Of a stretch of 35,094 nucleotides of DNA, positions 2,993 to 29,689 are shown piece after piece. The position numbers were made by a program, and so were the translations under genes. The stretch comes from Treponema sp. (GTDB taxonomy: Bacteria; Spirochaetota; Spirochaetia; Treponematales; Breznakiellaceae): contig JAITAI010000242.1 of NCBI GenBank assembly GCA_031284195.1, positions 1 to 35,094 of the forward strand, given 5' to 3'. The notes under the pieces were generated by a model. That model searched no databases. It was given only the letters and a program-made list of their open reading frames with translations, and had not been told where the DNA came from. Each line of letters opens with the position of its first letter. The stretch's first letter is position 1.

Positions 2993-3007
2993 ATTTTTCC
3001 TTTTTTT

Positions 3008-3241
3008 CTCTTACTTCCTATCCGGCTTAGTAACTAAACCCGGCGTCCTAATAGGTGTTTTCTCTTGCTTTCTATCCGGCCTTATGGACTAAACCCAGCG
3101 TCCTCCAGTTTTCCCTTACTTCCTATCCGACCTTATTAACTAAGTCCAGCGTCCTAGGAGGTGTTTCTCTTACTTCCTATCCGGCTTAGTAACTAAACCC
3201 GGCATCCTAGGAGGTGTTTTCTCTTGCTTCCTATTGGGCTT
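3008..3241. repeat. tandem repeat, 54-bp unit, 4 full copies plus a partial fifth, in the argB-argD spacer
   Basis: The CTT(A/G)CT unit starts at 3010, 3064, 3115, 3169 and 3223 (periods 54, 51, 54, 54). Each unit carries a 22-bp near-palindrome CCGGCTTAGTAACTAAACCCGG and an AGGAGGTG ... CTTCCT complementary pair. Confidence 0.9.
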
Positions 3242-3328
3242 TTCTTTGGTTGCAGGCCCTTGGAAACCGGTTTTTCTCATTCGGATTAATCCCGCAATTG
3301 CTGGACCAGCTTGCTGGGCCTGCGATTT

Positions 3329-12725: not shown

Positions 12726-12777
12726 AAGGTCTTTCCTGATGAAACTAACCGGATTTCCCTTAACGTATACATCCTTT

Positions 12778-12893
12778 CGCAATTATCCCCTGACGCATAA
12801 CCGATCATAATCAGAGGTCAGACATAGCCTATGTCAGAAGCCTGTCCCGATCGCCGAACCCGGTGAAGGGGTATACAGCAAGGGATAATTGCG
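12778..12893 (+). promoter_or_regulatory. candidate structured leader or operator region upstream of the exbB-like gene
   Basis: Perfect 12-bp long-range complement: CGCAATTATCCC at 12778-12789 pairs with GGGATAATTGCG at 12882-12893. It encloses a 21-bp near-palindrome TCAGACATAGCCTATGTCAGA at 12818-12838. The 3' arm is followed by CATCCTTTTT. No known riboswitch class recognised. Confidence 0.25.
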
Positions 12894-13162
12894 CATCCTT
12901 TTTAGAAAACGGAAGATCTTTAGGAAGGGTTTCAGCCTAATAGAGAGGGCCGCCGGTGACTTCCATTACCTCCTGAGGGTAGATTTTTTTATGTTGTTCA
13001 TACAAAAAATACCGGTTTCTGGGATCCTTTGGTCTTTTTATATGGGTTGTACTTGTGTGTTAGGAGTATAAGCGCCTGCTGGAGGCAAAGGACATACAAA
13101 CGCCAAGAGAACCTCCGTCCCCTCTTGAAGTACCCGTTGAATACCGGTATTATAGACCCATT

Positions 13163-14089: not shown

Positions 14090-15085
14090 TCACGTTTTCC
14101 GGGCTGTGGATTCCCGGATGATAAGTTTATACGGAAGGATCATATCCGTCCCGGTTCCCCAGCTGCCGTTGATAAGTTTATGCAAGGTAAGGGCGGTCTG
14201 TTCTCCGATTTCATCCAAAGGCTGCCGTATGGTGGTGAGTCGGGGTATGAGATAATCCGCGATTTCGATATCATCGAATCCGACCACGGAAATATCCTCA
14301 GGTACCCGCAGTCCCTCATCCTTTAAAACCCGTAAGGCCCCGATAGCCAGTTCATCCGTAGCGGCAAAGAGGGCGGAAAAATCCCGATCCCGGAGTAAGA
14401 ATTCCCGCATACCGTACATACCGAATTCGATGGTATAATAGGGGACCTGGATCAGCCGGTTTTCATTGCGCTCAAGCCCTGCGGCTTCGTGGGCTTGAAA
14501 GAATCCTTCAGCCCGCTGCCTGCCAAAGGAAAAGCCGCCACCGCTTATCATGCAGATCTTCCGATGCCCCAGGCTGATAAGATGGCTCACCGCATCAAAG
14601 GCAGCCTGTTCCTCATTGACATGAATAGAGAGAACCCCTTGGGTACTGAAGGTAGTGGCCACCAGGGGAAGCTTCATTTTAAGAGCGTATGCATAAAACT
14701 GAGGGTCTTTCATCTCATGGATCATGATGATGCCGTCGAGGGCTTCTGACTTTAAACGGGCAAGACAGACTTCTTCACTGGCGCCGTCAAATTGCACAAA
14801 GAAAAAGAGGGTGTGATACCCAAAAAATTCAAGCCGCCGTTCAATAACGGAGAAAAGCTGGCGTTGAAACAGGTTAAAGGTATCAGTGATGATGATCCCT
14901 ACGGTAAAACTTCGCTGTAACACCATGCTCCGAGCCGCTTTATTCGGCACATATCCGGTTTCTTCTATTATTTTAAGAATCTGGTCCCGCTTTTCCGGAT
15001 TTACGTTGTGTTTTCCATTAATCACCCGGGAAACTGTAGCCGGGGACATCCCCGCCTGTTTCGCAATATCTTTGATGCTAACCAT
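14090..15085 (-). CDS. LacI-family transcriptional regulator (candidate inositol-locus repressor)
   Basis: 331 aa. N-terminal HTH IKDIAKQAGMSPATVSRVINGKHNV, followed by a periplasmic-binding-protein-like sugar-binding core. Confidence 0.9.
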   Translation of the reverse strand: MVSIKDIAKQAGMSPATVSRVINGKHNVNPEKRDQILKIIEETGYVPNKAARSMVLQRSFTVGIIITDTFNLFQRQLFSVIERRLEFFGYHTLFFFVQFDGASEEVCLARLKSEALDGIIMIHEMKDPQFYAYALKMKLPLVATTFSTQGVLSIHVNEEQAAFDAVSHLISLGHRKICMISGGGFSFGRQRAEGFFQAHEAAGLERNENRLIQVPYYTIEFGMYGMREFLLRDRDFSALFAATDELAIGALRVLKDEGLRVPEDISVVGFDDIEIADYLIPRLTTIRQPLDEIGEQTALTLHKLINGSWGTGTDMILPYKLIIRESTARKT

Positions 15086-15503: not shown

Positions 15504-16517
15504 CTAAAACCGGACCAGTTCCCCGGTTTCAAAAGCTCGCTTACAGGTATAGGCGATTTCTGAGACCCGGGTTCCGTCGTATACAGAAACCCGGGGCTTT
15601 TGCCCGCTGACGATACAATCGACAAATTCCTGGATCTCGTTACAATAAGCATCACTGAAGCGTTCCAGGAAGTTTTCACTGCACTCCCGCCGCACCCCAT
15701 GACGATCGAGGACTTCCACCAGGTTTTTCTGAGGTACCGAAGCGATACGGAGGATACCCTTGGTACCGATGATCTCCGTTTCTACGTTATAGCCGTGAGG
15801 AGCAGTACGCCCTGCAAAGAGGAACACCATACAGCCGTTCTTAAACTGCATGAGGCAGGACACATTGTCCCCGTCTTGATATTGGGCAAATTCAGGATGA
15901 GCGTAACAGCCTCCAATGGCATACACCGTTTCCGGCTCGCTCCCGGTAAACCACCGGGCGAGATCGATGTCATGGACCGCCATGTCTAAGAATTGGCCTC
16001 CAGAGTGAGGGGCAAAGGCAATGGCTCCTGCAATAAACTTTTCCGGGTCTTGGCTGTAAGATCGGAACAACACAGGGTTGCCGATTTCCCCAGCCGCAAC
16101 TTTTTGCTGAGCATATTGGTAGGAACTATCGAAACGGCGCATAAAACCCAACATGAACACCAAATCAGGATGGGCCTCTACGGCTTTTTCCGCGGCTTTA
16201 CACTCCGCCACCGTAACCCCCAGGGGCTTTTCGGAAAACACATGTTTTCCTGCAGCTAGAGCTGCAGCAATCTGGGTGGTGTGAAGTCCCGAAGGGGAAA
16301 CCAGGACCACTGCGTCTAATTCTGATAAGGAAAGCATATCCTCAAACGCGGTGAACCGGTGGGGCACCCCTAGCTTATCTGCGGTTTGGTGTAATTTAGA
16401 CTTATCCACGTCACAGAGGGCCACCAGTTCGGCATGACGGATTTTAAGGGCGATGTTTTCGGCATGGGCTACACCTAAACGGCCAAGTCCCACAGAACCG
16501 ATACGAATTTTGTGCAT
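15504..16517 (-). CDS. Gfo/Idh/MocA-family oxidoreductase, inositol dehydrogenase-like paralog
   Basis: 337 aa. IRIGSVGLGRLGVAHAENI Rossmann motif, GKHVFSEKP and GFMRRFD. Last gene of the transporter operon. Confidence 0.8.
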   Translation of the reverse strand: MHKIRIGSVGLGRLGVAHAENIALKIRHAELVALCDVDKSKLHQTADKLGVPHRFTAFEDMLSLSELDAVVLVSPSGLHTTQIAAALAAGKHVFSEKPLGVTVAECKAAEKAVEAHPDLVFMLGFMRRFDSSYQYAQQKVAAGEIGNPVLFRSYSQDPEKFIAGAIAFAPHSGGQFLDMAVHDIDLARWFTGSEPETVYAIGGCYAHPEFAQYQDGDNVSCLMQFKNGCMVFLFAGRTAPHGYNVETEIIGTKGILRIASVPQKNLVEVLDRHGVRRECSENFLERFSDAYCNEIQEFVDCIVSGQKPRVSVYDGTRVSEIAYTCKRAFETGELVRF

Positions 16518-16629: not shown

Positions 16630-17640
16630 TTAATCCCGTTTGGCGTTTTTTCTCATGTCGATGATGACCGCCCCAACGATGATGAGGCCCTCCACGACCT
16701 TCTGCCAATAAGCGTTTACCCCAAGGAGGGTAAGGCCGTTCCGCATCACCGAAAGGACCAAGGCCCCCACAAAAGCCCCTCCGATGGTACCAATGCCCCC
16801 GGAATGAGAGGTACCGCCGATGGTAGTCGCGGCAATGGCGGTCAATTCATAACCGTCTGCAGCTCCAGGATGAACGCTACCTACCCGGCCTGCAAAGACC
16901 ACTGCGGCAAGGCCTGCCAAAAGACCGCAGTACATGTAGATCATGACCAGATTCTTGGGCACATTCACCCCGGATACTTCTGCGGCAGTGATGTTCCCTC
17001 CGATGGCATAGGTGTTTTTGCCAAACCGGGTTTTATTTAACAAGATGTAACTTATCACAATCATGATAAAGTAAATGATAACTGGTATCGGGATGACGTT
17101 AAAAAGCTTCCCGCTTAAGGCCGTGAGGGAGGGGATCATGTTACTCACTGGCCGCCCCCCGGTGTAGATCAGGGCAAAGCCCCGGGACACGGTCATCATA
17201 CCCAAAGTAGCGATGAACGCGGGGATCCTGGTTTTAGCGATTAACAAGCCGCTGATACTCCCGCATACTCCGCCGATAATGAGGGCCGTCAGAATAGGCA
17301 CGATGACCGGCATCACCGGCAGGGAGGGAAAGTACTTTTCCGTGGCGGTAGCGGTTTGCGCAAGACTTGCGGCGATCACCCCGGAAAAAGCCAGGACCGA
17401 ACCCACCGAGAGGTCGATGCCCTTGGATATGATGACAAAGGTCATCCCCAAGGCCATAATGCCAAAGATGGAACTCTGGGTTAACACATTGAAGATATTG
17501 GTGGCGCTCAAGAATGCGGGCTGTACAATACTCAATAAGATGATCATGATCACCAGAACGATAATAATGCCATACTTCTTGGCAGTTTGCCCGATATTGA
17601 TATGTCCCATAGTAACCTTAGTTAAGGCTGCAGATTTCAT
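16630..17640 (-). CDS. sugar ABC transporter permease (RbsC/AraH-like, CUT2 family)
   Basis: 336 aa, about 9-10 hydrophobic segments, GIDLSVGS motif. The start abuts the ATPase stop. Confidence 0.9.
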   Translation of the reverse strand: MKSAALTKVTMGHINIGQTAKKYGIIIVLVIMIILLSIVQPAFLSATNIFNVLTQSSIFGIMALGMTFVIISKGIDLSVGSVLAFSGVIAASLAQTATATEKYFPSLPVMPVIVPILTALIIGGVCGSISGLLIAKTRIPAFIATLGMMTVSRGFALIYTGGRPVSNMIPSLTALSGKLFNVIPIPVIIYFIMIVISYILLNKTRFGKNTYAIGGNITAAEVSGVNVPKNLVMIYMYCGLLAGLAAVVFAGRVGSVHPGAADGYELTAIAATTIGGTSHSGGIGTIGGAFVGALVLSVMRNGLTLLGVNAYWQKVVEGLIIVGAVIIDMRKNAKRD

Positions 17641-19185
17641 TTACCTCATCTCCTTTGCTTTCTTTTCTTTGTGGGCTTGGTAATATTCGTCTATGGTATT
17701 GGTGGCATAAGCCATTAATTCTTCCTGGGTCAGGTCCGGGGAATTCTCGAGGATACCCGTTACCTTGCCCTGATGCATTACCATGATCCGGTCGCTCATC
17801 CCCATAACCTCTGGGAGTTCCGAAGAAATCATCACGATAGACTTTCCTTCCTCGGCAAGCTTGCTAAGCAACCGGTGGATCTCCGATTTGGTAAGCACGT
17901 CGATACCCCGGGTAGGCTCGTCTACGAACAGAATCTCCGGATCCGTCATAAGCCAACGGGCAACCAGTACCTTCTGTTGATTTCCCCCGCTTAAGTTCCC
18001 AATATGCTGTTCCAGCCCTGCGGTTTTGACCTGGATCTTCTTGACGTATTCTTCACATTCCGCCCGCATATAGGTTTCCCGGATAAGCTTAACCTTGTTG
18101 AGAAATTTAGGAATGTTGGCGATGACCATGTTGAGCTGCACTCCCAGCATGGGGAATATCCCGGAACTCCGGCGGTCTTCCGTGAGCCAAGCCATCTTGG
18201 CGTTGATGGCCTCCTTCGCGTTCTTGATTTCCACTTTTTTCCCATCAATAAAGATTTCGCCCCCGCTCTTGGGCCGCACCCCAAAGATGGTCTCCACCAC
18301 CTCACTACGGCCCGCGCCGACCAGTCCTGCAATCCCCAGGATCTCTCCCCGGCGTACCGTAAAGGAAACATCCTGAAAATACTTCCGGTTAGAAAGGTTC
18401 CTGACTTCAAATTTGACTTCCCCTATGGGACACTTCACCTTGGGGAACAGGTCCTCCACATTCCGGCCTACCATCATAGTGATGAGTTGATCCACCTTGA
18501 GCTTGGCCGTATCTTCTGCGCCGATGTACTCCCCGTCTCGGTACACGGTGATCCTGTCGGTGATTTCGTAGACCTCATCAAGTTTATGGGAAATAAAGAT
18601 GATACTCTTCCCCTGGGATTTGAGCTTTCGCATAATCACGAAAAGCTGCTTGATCTCTTTTTCCGCGAGGGCTGAAGTAGGTTCATCCATGATGATGAGC
18701 TTTGAACTGTAGGAAATCGCCCGGGCAATTTCGATCATCTGCATTTTCGCCACCGTCAGGGAAGCCATAAGGGTGCGGGGATCCTCCTCTAGGTCAATCT
18801 CTTTGAGGACCTCCTTGGTCATCGCATACATTTTCTGATGATCGATCAGCCCCAAGGGGCTAAGGGGCTCCCGGCCAAGCCAGATGTTTTCCATGATAGG
18901 CCGGTGGAGCACTGGGCTCAATTCCTGATGGATCATGGAGATACCCATCTCTAGGGCTTGAGCAGGGCTATAAGGTCCTTGAAGCTTCCCATCAAAGATA
19001 ATTTCTCCGCTGGTTGGATGCTGCATCCCAATGATACACTTCATCAAGGTCGATTTACCCGCCCCGTTTTCTCCCATGAGGGCATGAATCTCTCCAGGGC
19101 GGACCTTAAGTTCAACCCCCCGCAGCGCCTTAACGCCGGGAAAGGTTTTTACAATATTTTTCATTTCAAGTAGATACGCTGCCAT
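17641..19185 (-). CDS. sugar ABC transporter ATP-binding protein, duplicated ATPase (RbsA/MglA-like)
   Basis: 514 aa. Walker A GENGAGKST, signature LSGGNQQK, Walker B ILFVDEPTRGID and IIMDEPTSAL. Two nucleotide-binding domains. Confidence 0.92.
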   Translation of the reverse strand: MAAYLLEMKNIVKTFPGVKALRGVELKVRPGEIHALMGENGAGKSTLMKCIIGMQHPTSGEIIFDGKLQGPYSPAQALEMGISMIHQELSPVLHRPIMENIWLGREPLSPLGLIDHQKMYAMTKEVLKEIDLEEDPRTLMASLTVAKMQMIEIARAISYSSKLIIMDEPTSALAEKEIKQLFVIMRKLKSQGKSIIFISHKLDEVYEITDRITVYRDGEYIGAEDTAKLKVDQLITMMVGRNVEDLFPKVKCPIGEVKFEVRNLSNRKYFQDVSFTVRRGEILGIAGLVGAGRSEVVETIFGVRPKSGGEIFIDGKKVEIKNAKEAINAKMAWLTEDRRSSGIFPMLGVQLNMVIANIPKFLNKVKLIRETYMRAECEEYVKKIQVKTAGLEQHIGNLSGGNQQKVLVARWLMTDPEILFVDEPTRGIDVLTKSEIHRLLSKLAEEGKSIVMISSELPEVMGMSDRIMVMHQGKVTGILENSPDLTQEELMAYATNTIDEYYQAHKEKKAKEMR

Positions 19186-19246: not shown

Positions 19247-20197
19247 CTATTGATACTGAGCCAAATTTTCTTTGGTAATGAGCACAAAAGGTACCCAGGT
19301 GATTGGTTCTGGGGATTCTCCCCGTAGGACTTTGTAAACTATTTCCGCAGCTCCCCTTCCTTGGCCTGCCGCATCTTGAAGCACCGTGGCGGCGAGGCTG
19401 CCATCTGCCACTGCGGCCTTGGCATCAGGAATCGCGTCCACTCCCATGACCAGCACATCGGTACGGCCTGCTGCTTTGAGGGCTTCTACTGCGCCCAAGG
19501 CCATTTCATCGTTATTGGCCAAAATGCCCTTGAGATCCGCTCCGTATGCGGTAAGCCAGTTTTCGGTGAGGCTCAGGCCCTGATCCCGCTGCCAGTTTCC
19601 GGTTTCCTCAGCGAGCACAGTGATACCGGGGAATTTACGGTTAATTATATCCTTGTTCCCTTCAGTGCGCAGGAGGGCCCCTTCGTTATCCAGCTTACCC
19701 ACCAAAATGGTCACCCCTCCAGATCCTCCAAGGAGATTACCCATGGCTTCCATCTGCATTTGCCCTGCAATCACTTCCTGAGATCCCACATAGTACACGT
19801 TAGGAGGAAGGGACTGATTACTAAAAGGATTCCGGTTGACATATACCAAAGGAATATTGGCTTCTTTAGCCGCATTGGTAATCGATTCAGTAGCATTGGT
19901 ATTCACCGGTACTACAATCAAGGCTTTAATTCCCTGGGCAATCAACGTGTTGGCCAGATCCTGCTGCTTGATCACATCCTCCTGGGCATCCTGAAAGATA
20001 AGGTCGTACTCAGGTTTATCCGCGAAAAACGCCCTGGTTTCGTTCATGATGTACCCCTGGAAGGTATCATTGAAGTTGTTACAGATGTACCCGATCCTGG
20101 TCTTGGCACCGCTGCCGGCCGTTTTTTGCCGGGAACATCCCAGAAATCCTGACAGCCCAATCAACGCCGCCATACACACCCATACTGTTTTTTTCAT
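19247..20197 (-). CDS. periplasmic sugar (probably inositol) binding lipoprotein, RbsB-like
   Basis: 316 aa. Signal peptide MKKTVWVCMAALIGLSGFLGCS with a relaxed lipobox. Type I periplasmic binding fold. First gene of the minus-strand operon. Confidence 0.88.
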   Translation of the reverse strand: MKKTVWVCMAALIGLSGFLGCSRQKTAGSGAKTRIGYICNNFNDTFQGYIMNETRAFFADKPEYDLIFQDAQEDVIKQQDLANTLIAQGIKALIVVPVNTNATESITNAAKEANIPLVYVNRNPFSNQSLPPNVYYVGSQEVIAGQMQMEAMGNLLGGSGGVTILVGKLDNEGALLRTEGNKDIINRKFPGITVLAEETGNWQRDQGLSLTENWLTAYGADLKGILANNDEMALGAVEALKAAGRTDVLVMGVDAIPDAKAAVADGSLAATVLQDAAGQGRGAAEIVYKVLRGESPEPITWVPFVLITKENLAQYQ

Positions 20198-20261
20198 GCC
20201 AATCTCCTTAATAAAAAAATAGTGTTCGTTTTCTACTGCACCTAATGAAAGACGCGTTAAA

Positions 20262-20275
20262 TGAAAACGTTTACA
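20262..20275. promoter_or_regulatory. LacI/CcpA-type operator O1 (TGAAAACGTTTACA)
   Basis: Matches the cre-type consensus TGWAANCGNTNWCA at all defined positions. Lies 5 nt downstream of the putative -10 of the minus-strand transporter promoter. Confidence 0.6.
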
Positions 20276-20436: not shown

Positions 20437-20447
20437 TATGAAATAAG

Positions 20448-20461
20448 TAAAAACGTTTTCA
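20448..20461. promoter_or_regulatory. LacI/CcpA-type operator O2 (TAAAAACGTTTTCA)
   Basis: 13 of 14 matches to the cre-type palindrome, with an AAAACGTTTT core. Sits immediately downstream of the putative -10 of the plus-strand promoter. Confidence 0.55.
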
Positions 20462-20517: not shown

Positions 20518-21543
20518 ATGGCAGATACAGTAAGGATAGGGCTTATTGGCGTTGGCCGGATCGGGAAGATCCATGCTGAAAATAGTGCTCAGCGTGTTCC
20601 CGGTGCCAGGCTTGAAGGAATTGCAGATATCGTATTACCCCAGGAACAGGTATCCTGGGCCCGGGGGCTGGGAGTCCGACTCCTTTCCACGGATCCCCAG
20701 GATATACTGAAGGATCCCGCCATTGACGGAGTGGTGATTTGTAGTGCTACCGACACTCACGCGGATCTGATCATCGCCGCCGCAGCTGCGGGAAAGCATA
20801 TCTTCTGCGAAAAGCCCATAGATCTGTCGGTTCCCCGGGTGAAGGCAGCTCTGGCTGCGGTGAAAGAGGCAGGGGTTACCCTCCAGATAGGCTTTAACCG
20901 CCGCTTTGATCATAACTTTAGGCGGATTCGAGAACTCATCCAGGCAGGGGACCTGGGAACCGTGCAGCTTATCAAGATCACCTCCCGGGATCCGGCTCCA
21001 CCTCCTCCGGCGTATGTGGCCGGTTCTGGGGGTATCTTCATGGACATGATGATCCATGATTTTGATATGGCCCGGTTCCAGGCAGGGAGCGAAATCACCC
21101 AGGTCTATGCTGCCGGGGCAGTGCTCATTGACCCGGAAATTGGAAAGGCCGGAGATGTGGATACTGCTATCGTAACCCTTACCTTTGCCAATGGCGCACT
21201 AGGGGTAATCGATAATTCCCGGAAAGCGGTTTATGGGTACGATCAGCGGGTAGAGGTGTTTGGCTCCAAAGGCGCGGCCCTAGCGGAAAACGACCTCCCC
21301 AATCAGGTAAGGGTATCCACTGCTGCGGGAGTTACCGGTGAAAAGCCCCTGCACTTTTTCCTGGAACGGTACAAAGAGGCTTATATTGCCGAGCTGGCAT
21401 CCTTTGTGGATGCGGTCTTGCACCATAGCCCTCCGAAAGTAAGCGGAGCAGATGGTTTGGAAAATATGTACGCGGCTCTGGCTGCGGGGAAATCTCTCAA
21501 AGAAAAGCGGCCTGTTTTCATTGATGAAGTCCGGGTTGCGTAA
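20518..21543 (+). CDS. iolG: myo-inositol 2-dehydrogenase (Gfo/Idh/MocA family)
   Basis: Start taken at MADTVRIGLIGVGRIGKIHAEN, preceded by a GGAGG RBS. Contains GKHIFCEKP, GFNRRFD and ITSRDP. First gene of an iolB/D/E operon. Confidence 0.85.
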   Translation: MADTVRIGLIGVGRIGKIHAENSAQRVPGARLEGIADIVLPQEQVSWARGLGVRLLSTDPQDILKDPAIDGVVICSATDTHADLIIAAAAAGKHIFCEKPIDLSVPRVKAALAAVKEAGVTLQIGFNRRFDHNFRRIRELIQAGDLGTVQLIKITSRDPAPPPPAYVAGSGGIFMDMMIHDFDMARFQAGSEITQVYAAGAVLIDPEIGKAGDVDTAIVTLTFANGALGVIDNSRKAVYGYDQRVEVFGSKGAALAENDLPNQVRVSTAAGVTGEKPLHFFLERYKEAYIAELASFVDAVLHHSPPKVSGADGLENMYAALAAGKSLKEKRPVFIDEVRVA

Positions 21544-21565
21544 GTAAAAGAAAGAAGGAGAAAAC

Positions 21566-22366
21566 ATGCAATTTCATCATAAGCCACCCTTTGGCCGAGG
21601 ATACACCCCCCTGGTGCTCAGGAGTGGAGCCACAGCAGATATGCTCATGGATTTCGGGGTTTTGCGTCTTTTACCGGGTGAAACTTACGAGAGTTATTCC
21701 GAAACCGATGAGCGTCTATGGCTTTTATCCCAAGGTATGGGGTTCATGGACGTGGGCAAGGAAGGATCCTTTGAAGTTTCCCGGCTCAATCTTTTTGACT
21801 ATTCCCCTTGGTGCCTTTCAGTTCCGGCAAAACAGCGGGTAACTATCGGCGCGTTGGACCGGGTTACTGAGTTTTACTATGCGGCCACGGACAACCCCCG
21901 GGAATTTAAGGTAAAATGCTACCCTCCTGAAGCATGCCGTAGCGAATTTCGGGGGGAAGGGACCATGCGGGAAACATCCACCCGGATCGTGCGGACCATC
22001 TTTGACGGCACCAACCGTCCTGAATCAAACCTGGTGATAGGGGAGGTTATCGGCGTACCGGGGAAATGGTCGAGCTATCCTCCCCATCATCACCCTCAGC
22101 CGGAGATATATCACTATCGGTTCCTTCCGCCTCAGGGTTTTGGGCTCACCGCCATCGGGGATACCCCCTATATCATCCAGGATCGGGATACTATCCTCAT
22201 CCGGGACGGCGAGGATCATCCTCAGGTAACCGCGCCGGGTTATGCTATGTGGTACCTCTGGGTGATCCGGCATCTAGAGAATAACCGTTATGGACCCCAG
22301 TACGTTGCCAAAGCCCACCAATGGGTAAGCGGGCCGGAAGAAAACATCTGGCAGCCCAAACGGTAG
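21566..22366 (+). CDS. iolB: 5-deoxy-glucuronate isomerase
   Basis: 266 aa cupin with the diagnostic GKWSSYPPHHHPQPEIYHY motif. RBS AGAAGGAGA. Confidence 0.88.
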   Translation: MQFHHKPPFGRGYTPLVLRSGATADMLMDFGVLRLLPGETYESYSETDERLWLLSQGMGFMDVGKEGSFEVSRLNLFDYSPWCLSVPAKQRVTIGALDRVTEFYYAATDNPREFKVKCYPPEACRSEFRGEGTMRETSTRIVRTIFDGTNRPESNLVIGEVIGVPGKWSSYPPHHHPQPEIYHYRFLPPQGFGLTAIGDTPYIIQDRDTILIRDGEDHPQVTAPGYAMWYLWVIRHLENNRYGPQYVAKAHQWVSGPEENIWQPKR

Positions 22367-22451
22367 GAGGATCCGGTACTGCCATCTTGGATGGGCGGTA
22401 TTTTTTAAAGCGTTCACAGGAGAAAAGCGTAATAATAAAGAAGGAGCATAG

Positions 22452-24311
22452 ATGAAAACAGTACGACTTACGATGGCCCAAGCATTGCTGCGTTTTTTAG
22501 ATAATCAATATATCGAAGTAGACGGGGAAGAAATAAAATTTGTAGCCGGAATTTTCGGTATATTCGGGCATGGCGTGGTAGTTGGACTTGGAGAGGCTTT
22601 AGCTGCGGGCGATCAGGGCCTGCGCTTTTATCAGGCTAAAAATGAGCAGGGTGGGGCCCATGCGGCTATGGGATTCGCCAAGCAGCACAAGCGTCGGCAG
22701 ATCATGGCGGTATGCAGTTCCATAGGTCCGGGAGCCCTCAATATGGTAACTGCCGCAGGAACTGCTTCGGCAAACCATATCCCGGTGCTGTTTTTACCCG
22801 GGGACGTGTTTGCCTGCCGTCAGCCGGATCCGGTGCTGCAGCAGATTGAAAACCCGGTGGACTATACCGTAAGCGCCAGCGATGCATTCCGGGCGGTGAG
22901 CCGTTACTGGGATCGGGTGAACCGGCCGGAACAGCTCATGACCGCCCTGATCAACGCCTTCAGGGTCTTGACGGATCCTGCGGAAACCGGGGCGGTTACC
23001 CTGTCTCTTCCCCAGGATGTGCAAGGGGAAGCCTGGGATTACCCAGAGGCGTTTTTAGCCAAACGGGTACATCACCTAGAACGCCGGCCTCCGACACAGG
23101 GCCAGATCCAGCGGGCCTTGGGAATGCTCAAGGCTGCCAAGAAGCCCCTGGTGATCTGCGGTGGGGGAGCCGGGTTCTCCGGGGCAGGCCCCGCATTGGA
23201 ACAGTTCTGTACGGCCTATCACATCCCCTTTGGAGAAACCCAGGCAGGCAAGGGGAACATCCTATGGGATCATCCCTATAACCTTTCCGGTATTGGTACT
23301 ACCGGCAGCTTGGCGGCAAACCGCCTCGCCAAAGAGGCGGACCTGATCATAGCGGTGGGTACCAGGTTGGGGGACTTTACCACCTGTTCCAAGTGGCTTT
23401 TCCAGAATCCTGCGTGCCGGATCTTGGGGATCAACATCGCTCCCTTTGACGCTTACAAGATGAACGGTGAACCTATCATTGCGGACGCCAAACTGACCCT
23501 GGAAGCCATGAACGCCGGCGCATCCCCTTACCGGTCGGATTGGGGTGGACGGATCCAGGAGGTTCGAGCCGAATGGAAGGCAGAGGTAGACCGGCTCTAC
23601 CAGGAAGAAGATCCCCTTGCCCTTTCCCAAGTACGGGTCTTAGGAGAACTCAACGACCGGCTTCTCCCTTCGGATGGGATCGTGGTGTCCGGTTCAGGGT
23701 CCATTCCCTCGGATATGCAGCGGGTATGGCGGGTTAGAACCAAAGGTACCTACCACATGGAATACGCCTTTTCCTGTATGGGCTATGAAATTGCCGCTGC
23801 CTTAGGGGTTAAAATCGCCCAGCCGGATAAGGAAGTGGTAGCCTTAGTAGGGGATGGGGCCTATACCATGCTCCACACCGAACTGTTGACCGCAGTACAG
23901 GAGCGGAAGAAGATCATCGTGGTGGTCCTGGATAATGCAGGGTTTCATTGTATTGATAACCTGCAGCATAGCCAGGGGATCGTCCATTTTGGCAATGAAT
24001 GGAAGACCCGGGATGTCCAAAGCGGGCGTTTGGAAGGGGCTTCTATGCAGGTGGACTACGCTAAAAACGCCGAAAGCTGGGGGGCTTTGGGTATTCGGGT
24101 GCGAACCCTAGAAGAACTCCGGGCAGGGGTAAAGCAGGCCCTGGCAGCTTCGGGACCGGTGGTGATCGATGTTAAGGTCAGCCCTAAGTCCATGACCCAC
24201 GGGTATGAAAGCTGGTGGCGAGTTGGAACGGCTCAAGTATCCGCCAATCCTGAAGTAGTGAAGGCTGCCAACCAGATGGCAGCGGAACTTGCCAAGGCGA
24301 GAACCTTGTAA
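22452..24311 (+). CDS. iolD: 3D-(3,5/4)-trihydroxycyclohexane-1,2-dione acylhydrolase (ThDP enzyme)
   Basis: 619 aa. N-terminus MKTVRLTMAQALLRFLDNQYIEVDGEE is typical of IolD. ThDP motif GDGAYTM...LDN. Confidence 0.9.
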   Translation: MKTVRLTMAQALLRFLDNQYIEVDGEEIKFVAGIFGIFGHGVVVGLGEALAAGDQGLRFYQAKNEQGGAHAAMGFAKQHKRRQIMAVCSSIGPGALNMVTAAGTASANHIPVLFLPGDVFACRQPDPVLQQIENPVDYTVSASDAFRAVSRYWDRVNRPEQLMTALINAFRVLTDPAETGAVTLSLPQDVQGEAWDYPEAFLAKRVHHLERRPPTQGQIQRALGMLKAAKKPLVICGGGAGFSGAGPALEQFCTAYHIPFGETQAGKGNILWDHPYNLSGIGTTGSLAANRLAKEADLIIAVGTRLGDFTTCSKWLFQNPACRILGINIAPFDAYKMNGEPIIADAKLTLEAMNAGASPYRSDWGGRIQEVRAEWKAEVDRLYQEEDPLALSQVRVLGELNDRLLPSDGIVVSGSGSIPSDMQRVWRVRTKGTYHMEYAFSCMGYEIAAALGVKIAQPDKEVVALVGDGAYTMLHTELLTAVQERKKIIVVVLDNAGFHCIDNLQHSQGIVHFGNEWKTRDVQSGRLEGASMQVDYAKNAESWGALGIRVRTLEELRAGVKQALAASGPVVIDVKVSPKSMTHGYESWWRVGTAQVSANPEVVKAANQMAAELAKARTL

Positions 24312-24420
24312 CTCTGGGGGATGGGGAGGATGTCTTCTTGCATCCCCTAAAGGCTTGTAATAAAGACCGGAGAATTTTGAAAAAAGATCGGAGAATTTTC
24401 CAAAAACATAAGGATAAAAA

Positions 24421-25305
24421 ATGGAACCAATTCACCTTGGGATAGCTCCTATAGGCTGGACCAACGACGACCTTCCTGAACTGGGCGGGGAGATTTCCTT
24501 TGAACAATGCCTCAGTGAAATGGCCTTGGCCGGGTTTGTGGGGACTGAAGTGGGGAATAAGTACCCCAAAGATCCAGCTACCCTCAATAGAGCCCTGCAA
24601 CTCCGGGGCCTGACCATTTGTAATGCCTGGTTCAGTTCATTTTTGACCACTAAGCCCTATGAGGAGGTGGAAGCTGCCTTCATTGCCCACCGGGATTTTC
24701 TGTATACAGTAGGCGCCCGGATCATCGGAGCAGCAGAACAGGGTCATTCTATCCAGGGCCAAGCCAAACCCATCTTTGAGGCTAAGCCGGTTTTTACTGA
24801 GGAGGAATGGCGCCGTCTCTGCGAGGGCCTTAACCGCTTAGGAAAAAGGGCTGCAGAAAAGGGGATGCACCTCACCTATCACCACCACATGGGAACCGGA
24901 GTGCAGACCGCAGATGAAATCGACCGGCTTATGGAAAACACCGATCCTCACCTGGTGGGGCTCCTCTACGATACCGGGCATCTGGTGTTCTCTGGGGAGG
25001 ATCATCTAGCGGTCCTGGACAAGTGGATAGGCCGTATCGGTCACGTGCACCTCAAGGACATGCGGGCCCCGATGCGGGAAAAGGCGAAGCGTGAAAAATG
25101 GTCCTTTCTCCAGGCGGTGAAGGCCGGGGTCTTTACCGTACCAGGAGACGGCTGCGTGGATTTTGTCCCGGTTTTCAATGCGCTCAAGGAAGCAGCGTAT
25201 ACAGGCTGGTGGGTGGTAGAAGCAGAGCAAGATCCTGCCAAGGCAAACCCGCTAGAATATGCTATTAAAGCGCGAAGGTATATTAAGGAAAAAGCCGGTA
25301 TCTAG
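24421..25305 (+). CDS. iolE: myo-inosose-2 dehydratase (xylose-isomerase-like TIM barrel)
   Basis: 294 aa. LGIAPIGWTNDDLPELGG N-terminus, HVHLKD and WWVVEAEQDP. Confidence 0.9.
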   Translation: MEPIHLGIAPIGWTNDDLPELGGEISFEQCLSEMALAGFVGTEVGNKYPKDPATLNRALQLRGLTICNAWFSSFLTTKPYEEVEAAFIAHRDFLYTVGARIIGAAEQGHSIQGQAKPIFEAKPVFTEEEWRRLCEGLNRLGKRAAEKGMHLTYHHHMGTGVQTADEIDRLMENTDPHLVGLLYDTGHLVFSGEDHLAVLDKWIGRIGHVHLKDMRAPMREKAKREKWSFLQAVKAGVFTVPGDGCVDFVPVFNALKEAAYTGWWVVEAEQDPAKANPLEYAIKARRYIKEKAGI

Positions 25306-25347
25306 TCGTGTTACGGCGAACCGGCAGGTTTGGTGTAAGGAGCGTTT

Positions 25348-26613
25348 ATGCGATTTGGGATTAACACCTTAGACGATATGGAGGTTCAAGGTAAGACCGT
25401 GCTATGCCGCATTGATATCAATCAGCCGGTAGATCAGGCCACGGGGACCCTTAAGGATACCACCAGGATAGAGGCGTGTACGCCAACCCTCAAAGAATTG
25501 AGTGATAAAGGGGCCAAGGTGGTCCTGTTGGCCCATCAAGGGAGCGATATTGAATACAAGAATTTTTATACCACTGCTCCCCATGCCCAGGTCTTGTCTA
25601 AACTTTTGGGAAAACCGGTCCGTTTCATCGATGATGTCTGCGGTCCTGCTGCTCGAAAGGCCATCCAGGCCCTGAAACCAGGGGAACTGTTACTTTTGGA
25701 TAATGTCCGTTTTGTGGCAGAAGAACAAACCCTCTTTGAAATGAAACTCCAGCTTTCCCATGCTGCCCAGGCAAAAACCCTGTTGGTAAAGAAGTTGGCC
25801 CCCTTAGCGGATCTGTATGTCTGTGACGCCTTTGCCGCAGCCCATCGGGATCAGCCCAGTCTCTGCGGGTTTGAACAGGTCCTCCCCAGCGCCATGGGGC
25901 GGCTCTTTGAAGCGGAATTCTGCGTTATCTCCTCTTTGATGGAAAATCCGGAACGGCCCTGTGTGTTTGTCCTGGGGGGATCTAAGATAAACGACGCCTT
26001 CCTCATGATGAGTACCGTCCTGGGGGGAGGCATCGCTGACCAGGTCCTTACGGGGGGCCTCGTCGGGGAGGTCCTCCTCTGGGCAGAGGATAAGGACATT
26101 GGGGAAAGGGCCCGGACTTTCATCAGGAAGGAGGGTTACGAATCCCTGGTTGGGACTGCCCGGGAACTCCTTGCAAAATACCGGAACCGGATCCTGATGC
26201 CCGAAGACTTCGCCGGGGTTAAGGAGGGGCAGCGGGTAGAATATCCCCTGGGAAAGATCCCTGGAGATACCCTGATCCTGGACATCGGGACCGAAACCGC
26301 AGCTCGCTACCAGACCCGGATCCGTGCGGCCAAGACGGTCTTCGTCAACGGCCCCATGGGGGTCTTCGAGGAGGCCCCCACAGAGCAGGGTACCCGGATG
26401 GTGTGGGACGCCTTGGGGGACACGGCAGCCTATACGGTTATCGGCGGTGGGGATAGCATCACCGCCACGAAGAAGTACGGCAAGACAAAGGATATCAACT
26501 ACATCTGTACCGGTGGAGGGGCGCTTATCCGTTTCCTCACCGGGGAAGAATTGCCGGTGGTAAAAGCCCTCCGGTATGGTTCAAAACTGACCAAAAAGCA
26601 GCTTGAGCGGTAA
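25348..26613 (+). CDS. phosphoglycerate kinase family protein, archaeal-type; physiological substrate uncertain
   Basis: 421 aa. VLCRIDINQPVD, VVLLAHQG, LLLDNVRF, DAFAAAHRDQPS, VFVLGGSKI, VNGPMGVFE, TGGGALIRFLTGEELP. The overall layout resembles archaeal PGKs rather than bacterial ones. RBS AAGGAG. Confidence 0.85.
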   Translation: MRFGINTLDDMEVQGKTVLCRIDINQPVDQATGTLKDTTRIEACTPTLKELSDKGAKVVLLAHQGSDIEYKNFYTTAPHAQVLSKLLGKPVRFIDDVCGPAARKAIQALKPGELLLLDNVRFVAEEQTLFEMKLQLSHAAQAKTLLVKKLAPLADLYVCDAFAAAHRDQPSLCGFEQVLPSAMGRLFEAEFCVISSLMENPERPCVFVLGGSKINDAFLMMSTVLGGGIADQVLTGGLVGEVLLWAEDKDIGERARTFIRKEGYESLVGTARELLAKYRNRILMPEDFAGVKEGQRVEYPLGKIPGDTLILDIGTETAARYQTRIRAAKTVFVNGPMGVFEEAPTEQGTRMVWDALGDTAAYTVIGGGDSITATKKYGKTKDINYICTGGGALIRFLTGEELPVVKALRYGSKLTKKQLER

Positions 26614-26682
26614 AAGAAAAACCAGTCTTTGGGCTGTTTTTCCAGAGCCTTTTTCTATAATAGGGAAATTAAGGAGAAAACA

Positions 26683-27708
26683 ATGGTTAAGGTAGGCGTA
26701 GCAGGCTACGGGGTAATCGGTCAGCGCTTGGCTGACGGCGTGGCCTTACAGAAGGACATGGAACTGGTGGGTATTGCAGACCTGGCTCCCACCCTTTCCA
26801 TCCGGGCGCTCAAAGAGCGGGGAATGCCCTATGATCTGTATCTCGTGGAAGGGGCAAATAAAGCCGCATTTGACGCAGCAGGTATTCCGGTGAAGGGCAG
26901 TTTTGCGGACCTTATCGGAAAGGTTGACATCATGCTCGATTCTTCCCCAGGAGGTGTAGGGGCCAAAAACAAGGAACGCTATGAAAAAGCGGGGATTTCA
27001 GCGATCTTCCAGGGAGGTGAAAAGAACTCCGTGGCGGATGTGTTCTTTCATGGGTATGCTAACTACGAAAAAGGCCTGGGGGCCAAGTATTTGAAGCTCA
27101 CCAGTTGTAATACCACAGGGCTTATCCGTTCGGTGGATTGCCTTGACCGGAATTATGGGGTTGACCGGGTGGCCATCACCATCATCCGGCGGGTAGCGGA
27201 TCCTGGGGACTATCACCGGGGATTGACGAACGCCTTGCAGATGGATAAGGCCCCCTCTCATCAGGCACTGGATCTCATGACCATCATGCCCCACGTGGAG
27301 GCTACCGGTATTTTGGTACACACCCCGGTAACCCACGGACATATCATAACCGTGGTAGCCCACGGCAAGCAGGGGAAGATAAGCAAGGATATGGCCCTAT
27401 TAGCCTTTAAGGCCCATGACCGTATCCGGGTGGTGCGTATTGAAGATGGATTTTTAGGGAATGCCTCCTTCTTTCGGTATGCCCGGGACCTGGGAAACCC
27501 CCGGGGGGATATGTATGAAATTGGGCTTTGGGAAGACAGCATCGTGGAAAGCGGAGACCACATCATGTATGCCATCAACATTCCCCAGGAGTCGGTTACC
27601 ATCCCGGAAACCATGGATGCGATTCGGGCCGCCCTGCGTATGCAGCAGGATTCAGCTTCAGGTACAGCGGAAACCAATAAATACCTGGGCTTAGGTAAAT
27701 GGAAATGA
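26683..27708 (+). CDS. type II (archaeal-type) glyceraldehyde-3-phosphate dehydrogenase family protein; physiological substrate uncertain
   Basis: Start at MVKVGVAGYGVIGQRLADGV after RBS AAGGAG (26671-26676). Contains AIFQGGEK, the catalytic-Cys motif SCNTTGL, IIRRVADP and PQESVTIPETMDAIRA. Confidence 0.85.
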   Translation: MVKVGVAGYGVIGQRLADGVALQKDMELVGIADLAPTLSIRALKERGMPYDLYLVEGANKAAFDAAGIPVKGSFADLIGKVDIMLDSSPGGVGAKNKERYEKAGISAIFQGGEKNSVADVFFHGYANYEKGLGAKYLKLTSCNTTGLIRSVDCLDRNYGVDRVAITIIRRVADPGDYHRGLTNALQMDKAPSHQALDLMTIMPHVEATGILVHTPVTHGHIITVVAHGKQGKISKDMALLAFKAHDRIRVVRIEDGFLGNASFFRYARDLGNPRGDMYEIGLWEDSIVESGDHIMYAINIPQESVTIPETMDAIRAALRMQQDSASGTAETNKYLGLGKWK

Positions 27709-28565
27709 GTGTACCAGACCTGCCTGCCCTCAAGGAGATGACCTGTTTTGCCGCGCGGATCCGCTTGGAAACTCTCAAGTGTGTGGGCGCCCGGGGTTTT
27801 GGTCATCTGGGGGGAGCTTTGAGTATTGTGGAGACCCTGGCGGTCTTATACAGTGGGGTTATGCGGATCGATCCCCATAATCCCCAGTGGCCGGATCGGG
27901 ACAAGCTGGTGATGTCCAAAGGACATGCCGGGCCTGCGCTCTATGCAACCTTGGCGCTCAAGGGCTACTTTCCCCTGGACTGGCTTTCGACCTTAAACCA
28001 ACCTGGAACGCGGCTCCCCAGTCACTGCGATAGGAAGCTGACTCCCGGTATTGATATGACCACCGGGTCCCTAGGACAGGGGGTCTCCACTGCCATAGGC
28101 CTTGCCTTGGCCCAGCGCATGGACGGTAAGGACCGCCGGACCTACCTTATTACCGGCGACGGAGAGCTTAACGAGGGACAAACCTGGGAGGGGGCCCTTT
28201 TTGCCCCTCAGCACAAGCTTACGAACCTGACATGGCTTGTGGATTACAACCACAAGCAGCTTGACGGCGAAACGAAAGATATCCTCGACCTGGGGGACCT
28301 GGAGGCAAAATTTGCGGCTTTCGGCTGGGCTACGGCGTCGGTGAACGGGAACGACCTCGCAGCGGTAGTTCGGGCGCTGGAAGCGGCTCGCCAAGAGACT
28401 GTAAAGCCCTTTTGTATAGTGCTTAACACCGTCAAAGGCGCAGGGGTTCCCTTGGTGGCTGCCATAGCCCTCAATCATCATATCGTGTTTGATGGGGACC
28501 TGCGGGCAAAGGCCATAGCTGCTATGGAACAGGAAGTCGCGGCTTTGGAAGGAGCATATACATGA
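27705..28565 (+). CDS. transketolase, N-terminal (PP-domain) subunit of a split transketolase
   Basis: GHLGGALSIVE, SKGHAGPALYA, ThDP motif GDGELNEGQTWE...VDYN. An ATGA overlap with the GAPDH-like stop gives the start at 27705; the alternative ATG at 27699 is also possible. Confidence 0.9.
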   Translation: MSVPDLPALKEMTCFAARIRLETLKCVGARGFGHLGGALSIVETLAVLYSGVMRIDPHNPQWPDRDKLVMSKGHAGPALYATLALKGYFPLDWLSTLNQPGTRLPSHCDRKLTPGIDMTTGSLGQGVSTAIGLALAQRMDGKDRRTYLITGDGELNEGQTWEGALFAPQHKLTNLTWLVDYNHKQLDGETKDILDLGDLEAKFAAFGWATASVNGNDLAAVVRALEAARQETVKPFCIVLNTVKGAGVPLVAAIALNHHIVFDGDLRAKAIAAMEQEVAALEGAYT

Positions 28566-29506
28566 TAGTATACGACGGCAGTATGGATACGGAAGGGTAC
28601 AAAAACGTCTTTGGCCGGGTGATGGAGGACTTATGCAACGAAGATCCGGATGTGGTGTATCTGGATGCGGATCTGATGAATTCCTTTGGCACCCACAGCT
28701 TATGGAAGCGGAATAAGCGTCAGGCTATTAACTGCGGTGTGAGTGAAGCCAATATGATGGGTATTGCCGCAGGACTTTCCGCAGGGGGGAAGAAGCCTTA
28801 TGTCCATACCTTCGGCCCTTTTGCGTCTCGACGCTGTTATGATCAGACCTTTCTCTCAGTAGGGTATGCGGGAAACAGCGTCCGGGTGTTTGGTTCTGAT
28901 CCAGGGGTAACTGCGGCCTTTAACGGCGGTACCCACATGCCTTTTGAAGACATGGCCCTGATGCGGGCAGTACCTCAGAGTACGGTCATCGAAATCAGCG
29001 ATGGCGTCATGCTGGAAAAGCTGATGCGCCTCACCAAGGACAGACCTGGACTTACCTATTTCAGAACGACCCGGAAAGCCTATCCCAAAGTGTACAGCCC
29101 GGATCACCCCTTGAGCATTGGCAAAGGGGAAGTGTTGCGGGAGGGAACAGACCTGACCATTATCGCCTGCGGACTTATGGTGGGGGAAGCCCTGAAAGCC
29201 GCGCAGCTCCTGCAAGAGCAGGGTGTCCGTACCCGGGTAGTGGATATGTTTACGGTTAAGCCCTTGGACGCGGCTCTGGTCATCCGCTGCGCTCGGGAAA
29301 CCGGTCGTATCCTCACCGCTGAGAACCACAACATCATTGGCGGCCTGGGGGATGCAGTGGGGGCAGCCTTGCTGGAAAGCGGGGTCCCGGTGAAGATGCG
29401 TAAACTGGGGGTTAAGGACGAATTCGGCTCCGTAGGTCCCCAAGAGTACCTCATGGAGCACTACGGTCTCAGCGCTGCCCACCTGGTACAGAGTTCATTT
29501 TTTTAA
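28562..29506 (+). CDS. transketolase, C-terminal (Pyr + C-terminal domain) subunit
   Basis: 314 aa. INCGVSEANMMGIAAGLS, HTFGPFASRRCYDQ. ATGA overlap with the upstream subunit. RBS GGAAGGAG. Confidence 0.9.
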   Translation: MIVYDGSMDTEGYKNVFGRVMEDLCNEDPDVVYLDADLMNSFGTHSLWKRNKRQAINCGVSEANMMGIAAGLSAGGKKPYVHTFGPFASRRCYDQTFLSVGYAGNSVRVFGSDPGVTAAFNGGTHMPFEDMALMRAVPQSTVIEISDGVMLEKLMRLTKDRPGLTYFRTTRKAYPKVYSPDHPLSIGKGEVLREGTDLTIIACGLMVGEALKAAQLLQEQGVRTRVVDMFTVKPLDAALVIRCARETGRILTAENHNIIGGLGDAVGAALLESGVPVKMRKLGVKDEFGSVGPQEYLMEHYGLSAAHLVQSSFF

Positions 29507-29516
29507 AGTTTTTCTT

Positions 29517-29554
29517 CATACTTCGAGCACTCCCAATACCGTGTTCGAAGTATG
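29517..29554 (+). terminator. hairpin downstream of the operon (possible terminator)
   Basis: CATACTTCGAGCAC at 29517-29530 pairs with GTGTTCGAAGTATG at 29541-29554 (14 bp including one G-U), with a 10-nt loop. It is not directly followed by a U-run; CGCTTTTT lies 17 nt downstream. Confidence 0.45.
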
Positions 29555-29689
29555 TGCGTACAGGGTCGCGCTTTTTCTACCCGCTGTAGACTGTTCCAGG
29601 GGAAAGAATTCTGCCGAAGGAAGGCGGTCTTTACGGTATTCTGGTGTTTATGGTATAATAGGCTTCAGAAAAAAGAAAAAGAGCGAAAA

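Follow-up and report, generated by a model that had tools for sequence, protein, structure and literature searches.

In the canonical catabolism of myo-inositol, IolG, IolE, IolD, and IolB convert the substrate into 5-dehydro-2-deoxy-D-gluconate (DKG), which is then processed by the ATP-consuming kinase IolC, the aldolase IolJ, and IolA. Transketolases participate in other catabolic systems. In the sulfo-TK pathway of sulfoquinovose degradation and the apulose-4-phosphate pathway of D-apiose degradation, the catabolic operon encodes a two-subunit transketolase that takes a C2 unit from an atypical ketose ending in a non-standard anion. Here we analyze an inositol operon from a Treponema sp. 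(GenBank assembly GCA_031284195.1, contig JAITAI010000242.1, positions 1 to 35,094). The whole of this 35,094-nucleotide stretch is referred to as the window. The operon encodes homologs of the enzymes leading to DKG, together with a phosphoglycerate kinase (PGK)-like protein, a type II glyceraldehyde-3-phosphate dehydrogenase (GAPDH)-like protein, and the two halves of a split transketolase. We propose that it specifies a transketolase-dependent variant of myo-inositol catabolism, a reading to which gene content, neighborhoods, and residue substitutions lead us to assign a probability of about 0.68.

The operon and its proposed lower branch

Analysis of the open reading frames and profile searches delineated a single co-directional operon on the plus strand (positions 20518-29506), in the order iolG-iolB-iolD-iolE-PGK-like-type II GAPDH-like-tktN-tktC. 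The gene content and order given in the original prediction agreed with the Pfam and NCBIfam profiles. The scores of iolG (20518-21543; myo-inositol 2-dehydrogenase; TIGR04380, 468 bits for a cutoff of 355), iolD (22452-24311; ring-opening hydrolase; TIGR04377, 892 bits for 715), and iolE (24421-25305; inosose dehydratase; TIGR04379, 428 bits for 290) all exceeded the curated cutoffs. The iolB-like gene (21566-22366) matched the Pfam KduI/IolB family with 175 bits and the IolB equivalog TIGR04378 with 84 bits, for a cutoff of 205. We infer that its product is a divergent IolB isomerase converting 5-deoxy-D-glucuronate into DKG. Next in the operon are the genes for the PGK-like kinase (PGKl, 25348-26613; Pfam PGK, 385 bits) and the type II GAPDH-like protein (GAPl, 26683-27708), which scored above both curated type II GAPDH cutoffs (NF003251, 394 bits for 185; TIGR01546, 292 bits for 233). 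The last two genes, tktN (27699 or 27705-28565; Pfam Transketolase_N, 172 bits) and tktC (28562-29506; Pfam Transket_pyr and Transketolase_C), encode the thiamine-diphosphate-binding half and the pyrimidine-binding and C-terminal half of a split transketolase, respectively.

The ATG codon of iolG follows a GGAGG sequence. GAPl starts at the ATG located at position 26683, behind AAGGAG, and not at the TTG located at position 26629, its homologs beginning with MVKVGV. The operon spacers comprise 22, 85, 109, 42, and 69 nucleotides. Of the two ATGA overlaps described previously, the one joining tktN to tktC was found as stated; the one joining the GAPDH-like gene to tktN exists only if the second ATG of tktN (27705) is used, the first ATG (27699) generating a 10-nucleotide overlap. 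A weak terminator-like hairpin (29554-29571) is located downstream from tktC, and a promoter-like site (29630-29659) precedes the next gene, encoding a GT4 glycosyltransferase. The last gene of the operon appears to be tktC.

Pfam scans of the large open reading frames of the window revealed no PfkB kinase, class II aldolase, or aldehyde dehydrogenase (ALDH), as expected from the earlier claim that iolC, iolJ, and iolA are missing from it. LarA and malic enzyme, which are introduced below, were also absent from the large open reading frames scanned in this manner.

The proposed route would proceed as follows. Inositol would be imported by the ABC transporter encoded next to the operon and converted into DKG by IolG, IolE, IolD, and the IolB-like protein, as assigned by family membership. 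The split transketolase would lift carbons C6 and C5 of DKG as a thiamine-bound glycolaldehyde unit and transfer this unit to an aldose phosphate, most simply glyceraldehyde 3-phosphate (GAP), to form xylulose 5-phosphate. This cleavage would free (R)-3-hydroxy-4-oxobutanoate (D-malic semialdehyde), to be oxidized by GAPl with NAD+ and phosphate to an acyl phosphate, from which PGKl would transfer the phosphate to ADP, generating D-malate and ATP. In this scheme, GAPl would act as a phosphorylating D-malic semialdehyde dehydrogenase, and PGKl would catalyze the conversion of D-malyl phosphate and ADP into D-malate and ATP. In related organisms, a Mar2-type racemase and malic enzyme, often encoded in the same operon, would convert D-malate into L-malate and then into pyruvate and CO2.

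The configuration of DKG is compatible with this scheme. Read from C6, the hydroxyls at C4 and C3 of DKG display the D-threo arrangement found in fructose and xylulose, which is required of transketolase donors. The same arrangement is also the reason why IolJ, a homolog of fructose-1,6-bisphosphate aldolase, can cleave the 6-phosphate. Among the intermediates of the iol pathway, only DKG appears to be a ketose configured as a transketolase donor. According to our derivation, cleavage between C5 and C4 leaves OHC-CH(OH)-CH2-COO- in the D (R) configuration, an analog of GAP with -CH2-COO- in the place of -CH2-OPO3. Since a D-configured product is expected from the D-gluconate configuration and the D-threo requirement of transketolase, and the GAPDH and PGK scaffolds are both D-specific, D-malate would be formed and a racemase would be needed. 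The original prediction had considered the D isomer as probable, in agreement with this derivation and with the presence of malate racemase genes at related loci.

The energetic advantage of the route is probably modest. The lower branch would require no ATP and yield one, as proposed initially, whereas the gain calculated for the whole pathway would be small, approximately 0 to 0.3 ATP per inositol. With acetate as the assumed end product, the canonical route yields about 3 ATP per inositol (-1 for IolC, +2 from dihydroxyacetone phosphate (DHAP), and +1 from each of two acetyl units). The transketolase route would yield about 3.3 ATP if the C2 unit is processed by the pentose phosphate pathway (+1 from PGKl, +1 from pyruvate, and about 1.3 from the C2 unit) and about 3 ATP if it is processed by phosphoketolase (+1 from PGKl, +1 from pyruvate, and 1 from the C2 unit).

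Recurrence of the module and its partner genes

Scanning one genome per species identified 536 stretches in which a close relative of GAPl is encoded, and 80 of these loci were compared. Addition of the locus of T. primitia ZAS-2 (L081) and of the window resulted in a set of 82 loci, of which 35 were considered as well flanked based on the presence of at least 8 kb on each side. The loci originated from Spirochaetota, many Bacillota (Oscillospiraceae, Christensenellales, Lachnospiraceae, and Peptococcaceae), Anaerolineae (Chloroflexota), Planctomycetaceae (Planctomycetota), and Synergistaceae; according to the record titles, the source organisms were all gut or digester anaerobes. The PGKl gene adjoins the GAPl gene in 72 of the 82 loci and in 32 of the 35 well-flanked loci. 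Among the latter, a split transketolase was found in 20 loci and iolD in 13. Clustering of all open reading frames of the loci revealed two recurrent partners that had not been foreseen in the original prediction, a malate racemase of the LarA family (21/35) and malic enzyme (11/35). At least one of transketolase, racemase, malic enzyme, and iolD was present in 28 of the 35 loci. Co-occurrence of type II GAPDH, PGK, and split transketolase with iolB, iolD, and iolE in other bacteria, raised as a question in the original prediction, was observed in loci from at least four phyla. The arrangement is not due to chance, as it recurs in Spirochaetota, Bacillota, Chloroflexota, and Planctomycetota. 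The PGKl gene precedes the GAPl gene in spirochetes and follows it in Bacillota and Chloroflexota, indicating that their pairing is functional rather than inherited synteny.

All ten genes were found together in Breznakiellaceae bacterium SP9 (GCA_054889195.1; locus L082, 1718-14043), in which a single operon comprises iolG-iolD-iolB-iolE-PGKl-GAPl-tktN-tktC-malic enzyme-LarA. These ten genes are proposed to encode the entire route from inositol to pyruvate. The SP9 genome appears to be that of an isolate. In T. primitia ZAS-2, the order is iolG-iolB-iolD-iolE-PGKl-GAPl-malic enzyme-(137 aa)-LarA, the open reading frame of 137 codons located between the malic enzyme and LarA genes (12657-13070) having no family match. 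The linkage between iolB and transketolase is kept in locus L034, in which iolD, iolE, and iolG are absent.

Malic enzyme acts on L-malate, and D-malate leads no further unless racemized. Because the proposed chemistry generates D-malate, both a racemase and malic enzyme would be needed to reach pyruvate, and the recurrence of these two partners is predicted by this chemistry and not by a housekeeping role of the genes. The LarA protein of locus L061 scored 578 bits with NF052593, the equivalog profile of the LarAH6/Mar2 malate racemases (cutoff of 500). The same protein matched the Mar2 crystal structure 6d6z with 425 bits and an identity of roughly 57%, as read from the alignment, and the GHK motif was kept. 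For the LarA protein of T. primitia ZAS-2, NF052593 was also the best match, with a score of 399 bits, below the cutoff. Based on these profile and structure matches, the partner LarA is assigned as a nickel-dependent malate racemase of the LarAH6/Mar2 type. Malate racemases form the largest group of LarA homologs, and their role in vivo was left open by their discoverers (PMC7583248). A supplementary table of the same study reports PGK (COG0126) in the vicinity of group-4 LarA homologs and malic enzyme in the vicinity of group 6 (PMC7583248).

The related loci were also screened for the canonical lower branch. Searches of the 82 loci with phmmer and tblastn, using an E. coli RbsK sequence as the seed, detected PfkB-like open reading frames in only two loci, L017 and, as a weak match, L033, both of which lack iolD. 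A PfkB kinase was therefore absent from every iolD-bearing locus searched with this ribokinase seed. A regular-expression screen was dropped since it had missed the ribokinase-like open reading frame of L017. The class II aldolase signature was present in a single locus devoid of iol genes, and approximate ALDH active-site motifs matched nothing in the loci except one open reading frame of 353 codons, too short for an ALDH. Taken together, the profile, seed, and motif screens detected no IolC, IolJ, or IolA in the window or in 29 related iolD-bearing loci, which is consistent, at the operon level, with a replacement of the canonical lower branch. In L033, the weak PfkB-like open reading frame (2922-3845) is located approximately 5 kb upstream from an IolB-GAPl-PGKl-racemase cluster without transketolase; this locus may be a hybrid arrangement.

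Some genomes harbor a second GAPl copy in another sugar context (L048 and L061; L035 and L039). In two of these second copies (L039, 10001-12850; L048, 10001-13200), the GAPl gene is directly followed by the special tktN and tktC genes, without a PGK-like gene. In a Saccharofermentanales locus (L067), a type I GAPDH gene (8587-9645; TIGR01534, 431 bits for a cutoff of 367) is located directly upstream from a GAPl-PGKl-racemase-tktN-tktC cluster. The presence of a type I GAPDH beside GAPl argues against the possibility that the only gap gene of a genome merely sits at such a locus. Stand-alone GAPl-PGKl pairs were found in L058, L062, and L068, the flanks of which contain no racemase, malic enzyme, transketolase, or iol genes. 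Assignment of the neighbors of these pairs to tpi, pgm, and eno was rejected, inspection of their sequences indicating unrelated proteins (a metallophosphoesterase-like protein, flavoproteins, and a small membrane protein).

Substitutions in the recruited enzymes and weighing of alternatives

All three recruited enzymes keep their catalytic residues and display clade-wide substitutions at phosphate-binding positions. For GAPl, the roles of residues were taken from the literature (PMC12041015). GAPl keeps Ser139, Cys140, Asn141, Arg167, Arg168, His193, and His219, with conservation of the SCNTT, THGH, and RR motifs. In 78 of 80 sequences of the clade, the differences in the active site are limited to the replacement of His194 by Gln, together with G195A and P196V/L; a His residue is present at position 194 in nearly all other representatives of type II GAPDH. 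The inorganic phosphate site (Ser139, Asn141, Arg167, His193, and His194) is thus incomplete owing to the loss of His194. The NADP-specifying residue Lys33 is replaced by Asp, which suggests that GAPl uses NAD. A search of 1.8 billion representatives indicated that the clade is isolated, since the full-length representatives were 87% and 62% identical to GAPl and the next sequences at most 45%; identity with any type II GAPDH outside of the clade was 35-45%. Within the clade, GAPl was 88-96% identical to proteins from termite-gut Treponema and Breznakiellaceae genomes, including 91% for T. primitia ZAS-2, making a termite-gut spirochete the most likely source of the window. A Geobacillus origin, to which the G+C content and one published study had pointed, was rejected, as the cluster of that study is canonical, with iolC, iolJ, and iolA, and the window has its nearest relatives among termite-gut Treponema. 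Across four phyla, GAPl identity was 77-96%, and the IolD, IolB, and TktC proteins of the same loci were approximately 35-65% identical to those of the window. The high conservation of GAPl reflects either unusually strong constraint or recent transfer.

The closest solved structure to PGKl is that of the archaeal PGK of Pyrococcus horikoshii (2CUN). The GGxK, GPMGVFE, GGGDS, and TGGGA motifs are conserved, and the fold, the nucleotide site, and the catalytic residue Lys215 are present. PGKl also keeps Asp23, Asn25, Arg38, His62, Arg122, and Arg170. In PGK, Arg65 is one of the three arginines holding the 3-phosphate of 3-phosphoglycerate (PMC7729029). This residue is replaced in all 67 PGKl sequences, by Ser in class A, to which the window protein belongs, and by Asp in class B. 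The basic patch binding the 3-phosphate (Arg65, Arg122, Arg170, and His62) is thus incomplete, the other three residues being kept. Classes A and B are 42-46% identical and share an HQG[SD][DT][IL][ED]YxN loop. We considered class B as an ordinary bacterial PGK, which would have made the stand-alone pairs housekeeping genes. This was rejected since class B also lacks Arg65 and harbors the same special loop.

The transketolase halves of the window matched the split transketolase structures of C. hydrogenoformans (6yak and 6yaj) with 231-232 bits (231 for tktN with 6yak), and the required domains and the split architecture of the C. hydrogenoformans enzyme are present. Residues of TktC were mapped by alignment to the numbering of human transketolase, in which Arg318, Ser345, His416, and Arg474 bind phosphate and Asp424 selects the stereochemistry. 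The window protein harbors R318K, H416D, E423F, and D424N and keeps Ser345 and Arg474. Replacement of Glu423-Asp424 by [F/Y]-Asn and of His416 by Asp was found in 36 of the 37 transketolases of the loci, 32 of which additionally harbor Lys in the place of Arg318. The only canonical sequence among the 37 was encoded by an unlinked transketolase gene in L026. The transketolases of C. hydrogenoformans and human keep the canonical residues at these positions. From these alignments, the substrate channel of TktC is predicted to be altered.

Several observations weigh against the proposed route. The two arginines of the GAP phosphate site are conserved in GAPl, which also exceeds the equivalog cutoff and may therefore retain ordinary GAPDH activity. 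The product of the IolB-like protein is assumed, its score lying under the cutoff for the IolB equivalog. In TktC, the replacement of His by Asp would not readily be expected of an enzyme adapting to a carboxylate, and it may also be asked how the altered channel would accommodate a phosphorylated acceptor. The transketolase is not linked in 15 of the 35 well-flanked loci, including that of T. primitia ZAS-2, and no protein from this strain was present among the best 120 TktC homologs. The window itself contains neither a racemase nor a malic enzyme gene, and in this organism both genes must lie outside of the window. Finally, GAPl-PGKl-racemase clusters were found next to a TRAP transporter, a PdxA-like dehydrogenase, an Asp/Glu-racemase-like protein, and a tartronate semialdehyde reductase (NF008592, 437 bits for a cutoff of 397). 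These loci (L040, L074, L026, L038, L045, and L064; upstream from GAPl, around position 10001) are devoid of iol genes and of the module-type transketolase. They point to at least one further feeder pathway or a broader use of substrates, and the GAPl/PGKl pair may act on a broader range of aldehydes or on a different one.

Three other explanations were considered. The genes could be housekeeping or flux-boosting copies, encoding ordinary GAPDH, PGK, and transketolase that handle triose and pentose phosphates derived from a canonical IolC/IolJ/IolA branch encoded elsewhere. The equivalog score of GAPl, its conserved Cys, His, Arg-Arg, and phosphate-site residues, the intact catalytic machinery of PGKl, and the occurrence of some pairs alone amid unrelated genes would fit this explanation. 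It accounts neither for the repeated occurrence of malate racemase and malic enzyme, nor for the loss, throughout the clade, of phosphate-binding residues in TktC and in both PGKl classes, nor for the lack of a PfkB kinase at any iolD locus, and it is further weakened by the type I GAPDH gene adjoining GAPl in L067 and by the duplicate GAPl copies found in different sugar contexts. We therefore regard it as unlikely. The module could alternatively yield ATP from another 2-hydroxy-aldehyde acid, such as tartronate semialdehyde or a longer deoxy-uronate, the transketolase having another role and the racemase acting on a malate-like product such as tartrate. The non-inositol clusters described above, the side activity of Mar enzymes on tartrate (PMC11770544), and the association of GAPl with transketolase in the absence of PGKl (L039 and L048) speak in its favor. 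However, malic enzyme is a frequent partner, the iolB-transketolase linkage survives the loss of iolD, iolE, and iolG, and DKG would be the sole iol intermediate with the configuration of a transketolase donor according to established chemistry and our own reasoning. A different substrate thus appears improbable.

The reactions of GAPDH, PGK, and transketolase are reversible, and the module could in principle be biosynthetic, PGKl activating malate with ATP, GAPl reducing the product to the semialdehyde, and transketolase extending it. Such a reductive direction is very hard to reconcile with the location of the module inside catabolic operons that also encode transporters, repressors, and IolD, an irreversible hydrolase, or with a decarboxylating malic enzyme as a partner. 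The transketolase-dependent catabolic route remains the preferred reading. The roles first suggested for the transketolase, GAPDH-like, and PGK-like genes gain support from the racemase and malic enzyme partners, the substitutions in the phosphate sites, and the lack of PfkB genes at iolD loci. A wider claim can be formulated, namely that anaerobes of at least four phyla ferment inositol by a carboxylate-adapted transketolase splitting DKG and by a new substrate-level phosphorylation leading from D-malic semialdehyde to D-malyl phosphate, and then to D-malate and ATP, this route being the physiological source of D-malate that has long been sought for the large family of nickel-pincer malate racemases. 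We consider the chances that this claim holds in full to be evenly balanced.

Setting in the window and relation to known systems

The predicted transporter and regulator genes adjacent to the operon were recovered by the Pfam scans. On the minus strand, upstream from the operon, are genes encoding a sugar-binding protein (19247-20197; Peripla_BP_4), an ABC ATPase (17641-19185; two ABC_tran domains), and an ABC permease (16630-17640; BPD_transp_2), homologs of which flank iol genes in many related loci. Located between the permease and LacI genes is a second IolG-type inositol 2-dehydrogenase gene on the minus strand (15504-16517; TIGR04380, 377 bits for a cutoff of 355), the product of which may act on another inositol isomer. 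The LacI-family regulator, also encoded on the minus strand (14090-15085), matched Pfam LacI and Peripla_BP_3, its best NCBIfam matches scoring below the cutoff. The divergent promoter region contains two operator-like 14-bp palindromes, TGAAAACGTTTACA (20260-20273) and TAAAAACGTTTTCA (20447-20460), the latter 58 nucleotides upstream from the iolG start. Both share the core AAACGTTT, a form typical of operators of the LacI family. The core AAAACGTTTWC occurs at only two sites in the window, both within the 320-bp divergent spacer. The palindromes are probably LacI-family operators, through which LacI would repress both divergent units.

The G+C content of positions 21001-29000 (0.53-0.56) exceeds that of the flanks (0.41-0.51), which is compatible with horizontal acquisition of the operon. 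Further away, in a region comprising 9976-12725 (plus strand) and 8568-9779 (minus strand), two oxidoreductase genes overlap, one encoding an FAD-dependent enzyme with a BFD-like 2Fe-2S domain and the other a pyridine-nucleotide-disulfide oxidoreductase; this arrangement resembles that of pairs of the anaerobic glycerol-3-phosphate dehydrogenase type. Near these genes, the same region encodes a fusion of an aldo/keto reductase with a 4Fe-4S dicluster domain. Both observations are unrelated to the inositol operon.

In our judgment, the operon would specify a new form of inositol catabolism, for which three familiar enzyme families would have supplied members of new specificity. Searches of the open full-text literature found no description of a transketolase-dependent inositol route or of a malate-forming step of the GAPDH/PGK type, subscription-only papers not being covered. 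The route is apparently undescribed, in agreement with an earlier remark that the arrangement was not known as an inositol pathway. If the proposal is correct, it would introduce into central metabolism a new ATP-forming reaction, equivalent to a natural "malate kinase" operating in reverse, as well as a natural phosphorylating malic semialdehyde dehydrogenase. Synthetic production of 2,4-dihydroxybutyrate required the engineering of comparable activities, which involve the other carboxyl of L-malate. The proposal would also provide malate racemase with a physiological role and correct annotation, close relatives of the GAPDH-like gene being present at 536 sites in species-representative genomes; such genes currently bear the names type II GAPDH, PGK, and transketolase. 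The proposal bears on the fermentation of dietary and plant inositol by gut and termite-gut anaerobes. The route is directly testable in two cultured strains that carry the operon, T. primitia ZAS-2 and Breznakiellaceae SP9.

The enzymes of the module have counterparts in several described systems. The LarA proteins of related loci belong to the same equivalog family as Mar2/LarAH6 of Thermoanaerobacterium thermosaccharolyticum. The window has no racemase gene, and for the family the present context offers a physiological role, the salvage of D-malate formed by the pathway. The L-carnitine route of Acinetobacter baumannii is aerobic and involves a non-phosphorylating enzyme of the ALDH family, with no gain of ATP. 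In contrast, the GAPDH-family enzyme of the present operon would conserve energy as an acyl phosphate. A study of this degradation pathway gives malic semialdehyde as an intermediate, its conversion to malate being hypothesized (PMC11353897). GAPl and PGKl share with the archaeal type II GAPDH and PGK (1CF2 of M. fervidus; 2CZC and 2CUN of P. horikoshii) the fold, the catalytic residues, the coupling of dehydrogenase and kinase, and the D-2-hydroxy specificity. They differ from these enzymes by the presence of Gln for His194 and Asp for Lys33 in GAPl, by the lack of Arg65 in PGKl, and by their location in bacterial sugar operons beside malate racemase.

The operon resembles canonical loci of the B. 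subtilis iolABCDEFGHIJ type with respect to transport, to the conversion of inositol into DKG by IolG, IolE, IolD, and IolB, and to the control of divergent units by a repressor. It would differ by a C2 + C4 cleavage catalyzed by transketolase, instead of a C3 + C3 cleavage catalyzed by an aldolase following ATP-dependent phosphorylation, and by the formation of D-malate instead of DHAP and malonate semialdehyde. The sulfo-TK and apulose routes provide a precedent for the use of a split transketolase. In the inositol operon, the proposed substrate is a carboxylate-terminated deoxy-ketoacid, and the released aldehyde would serve for substrate-level phosphorylation rather than being reduced, exported, or isomerized.

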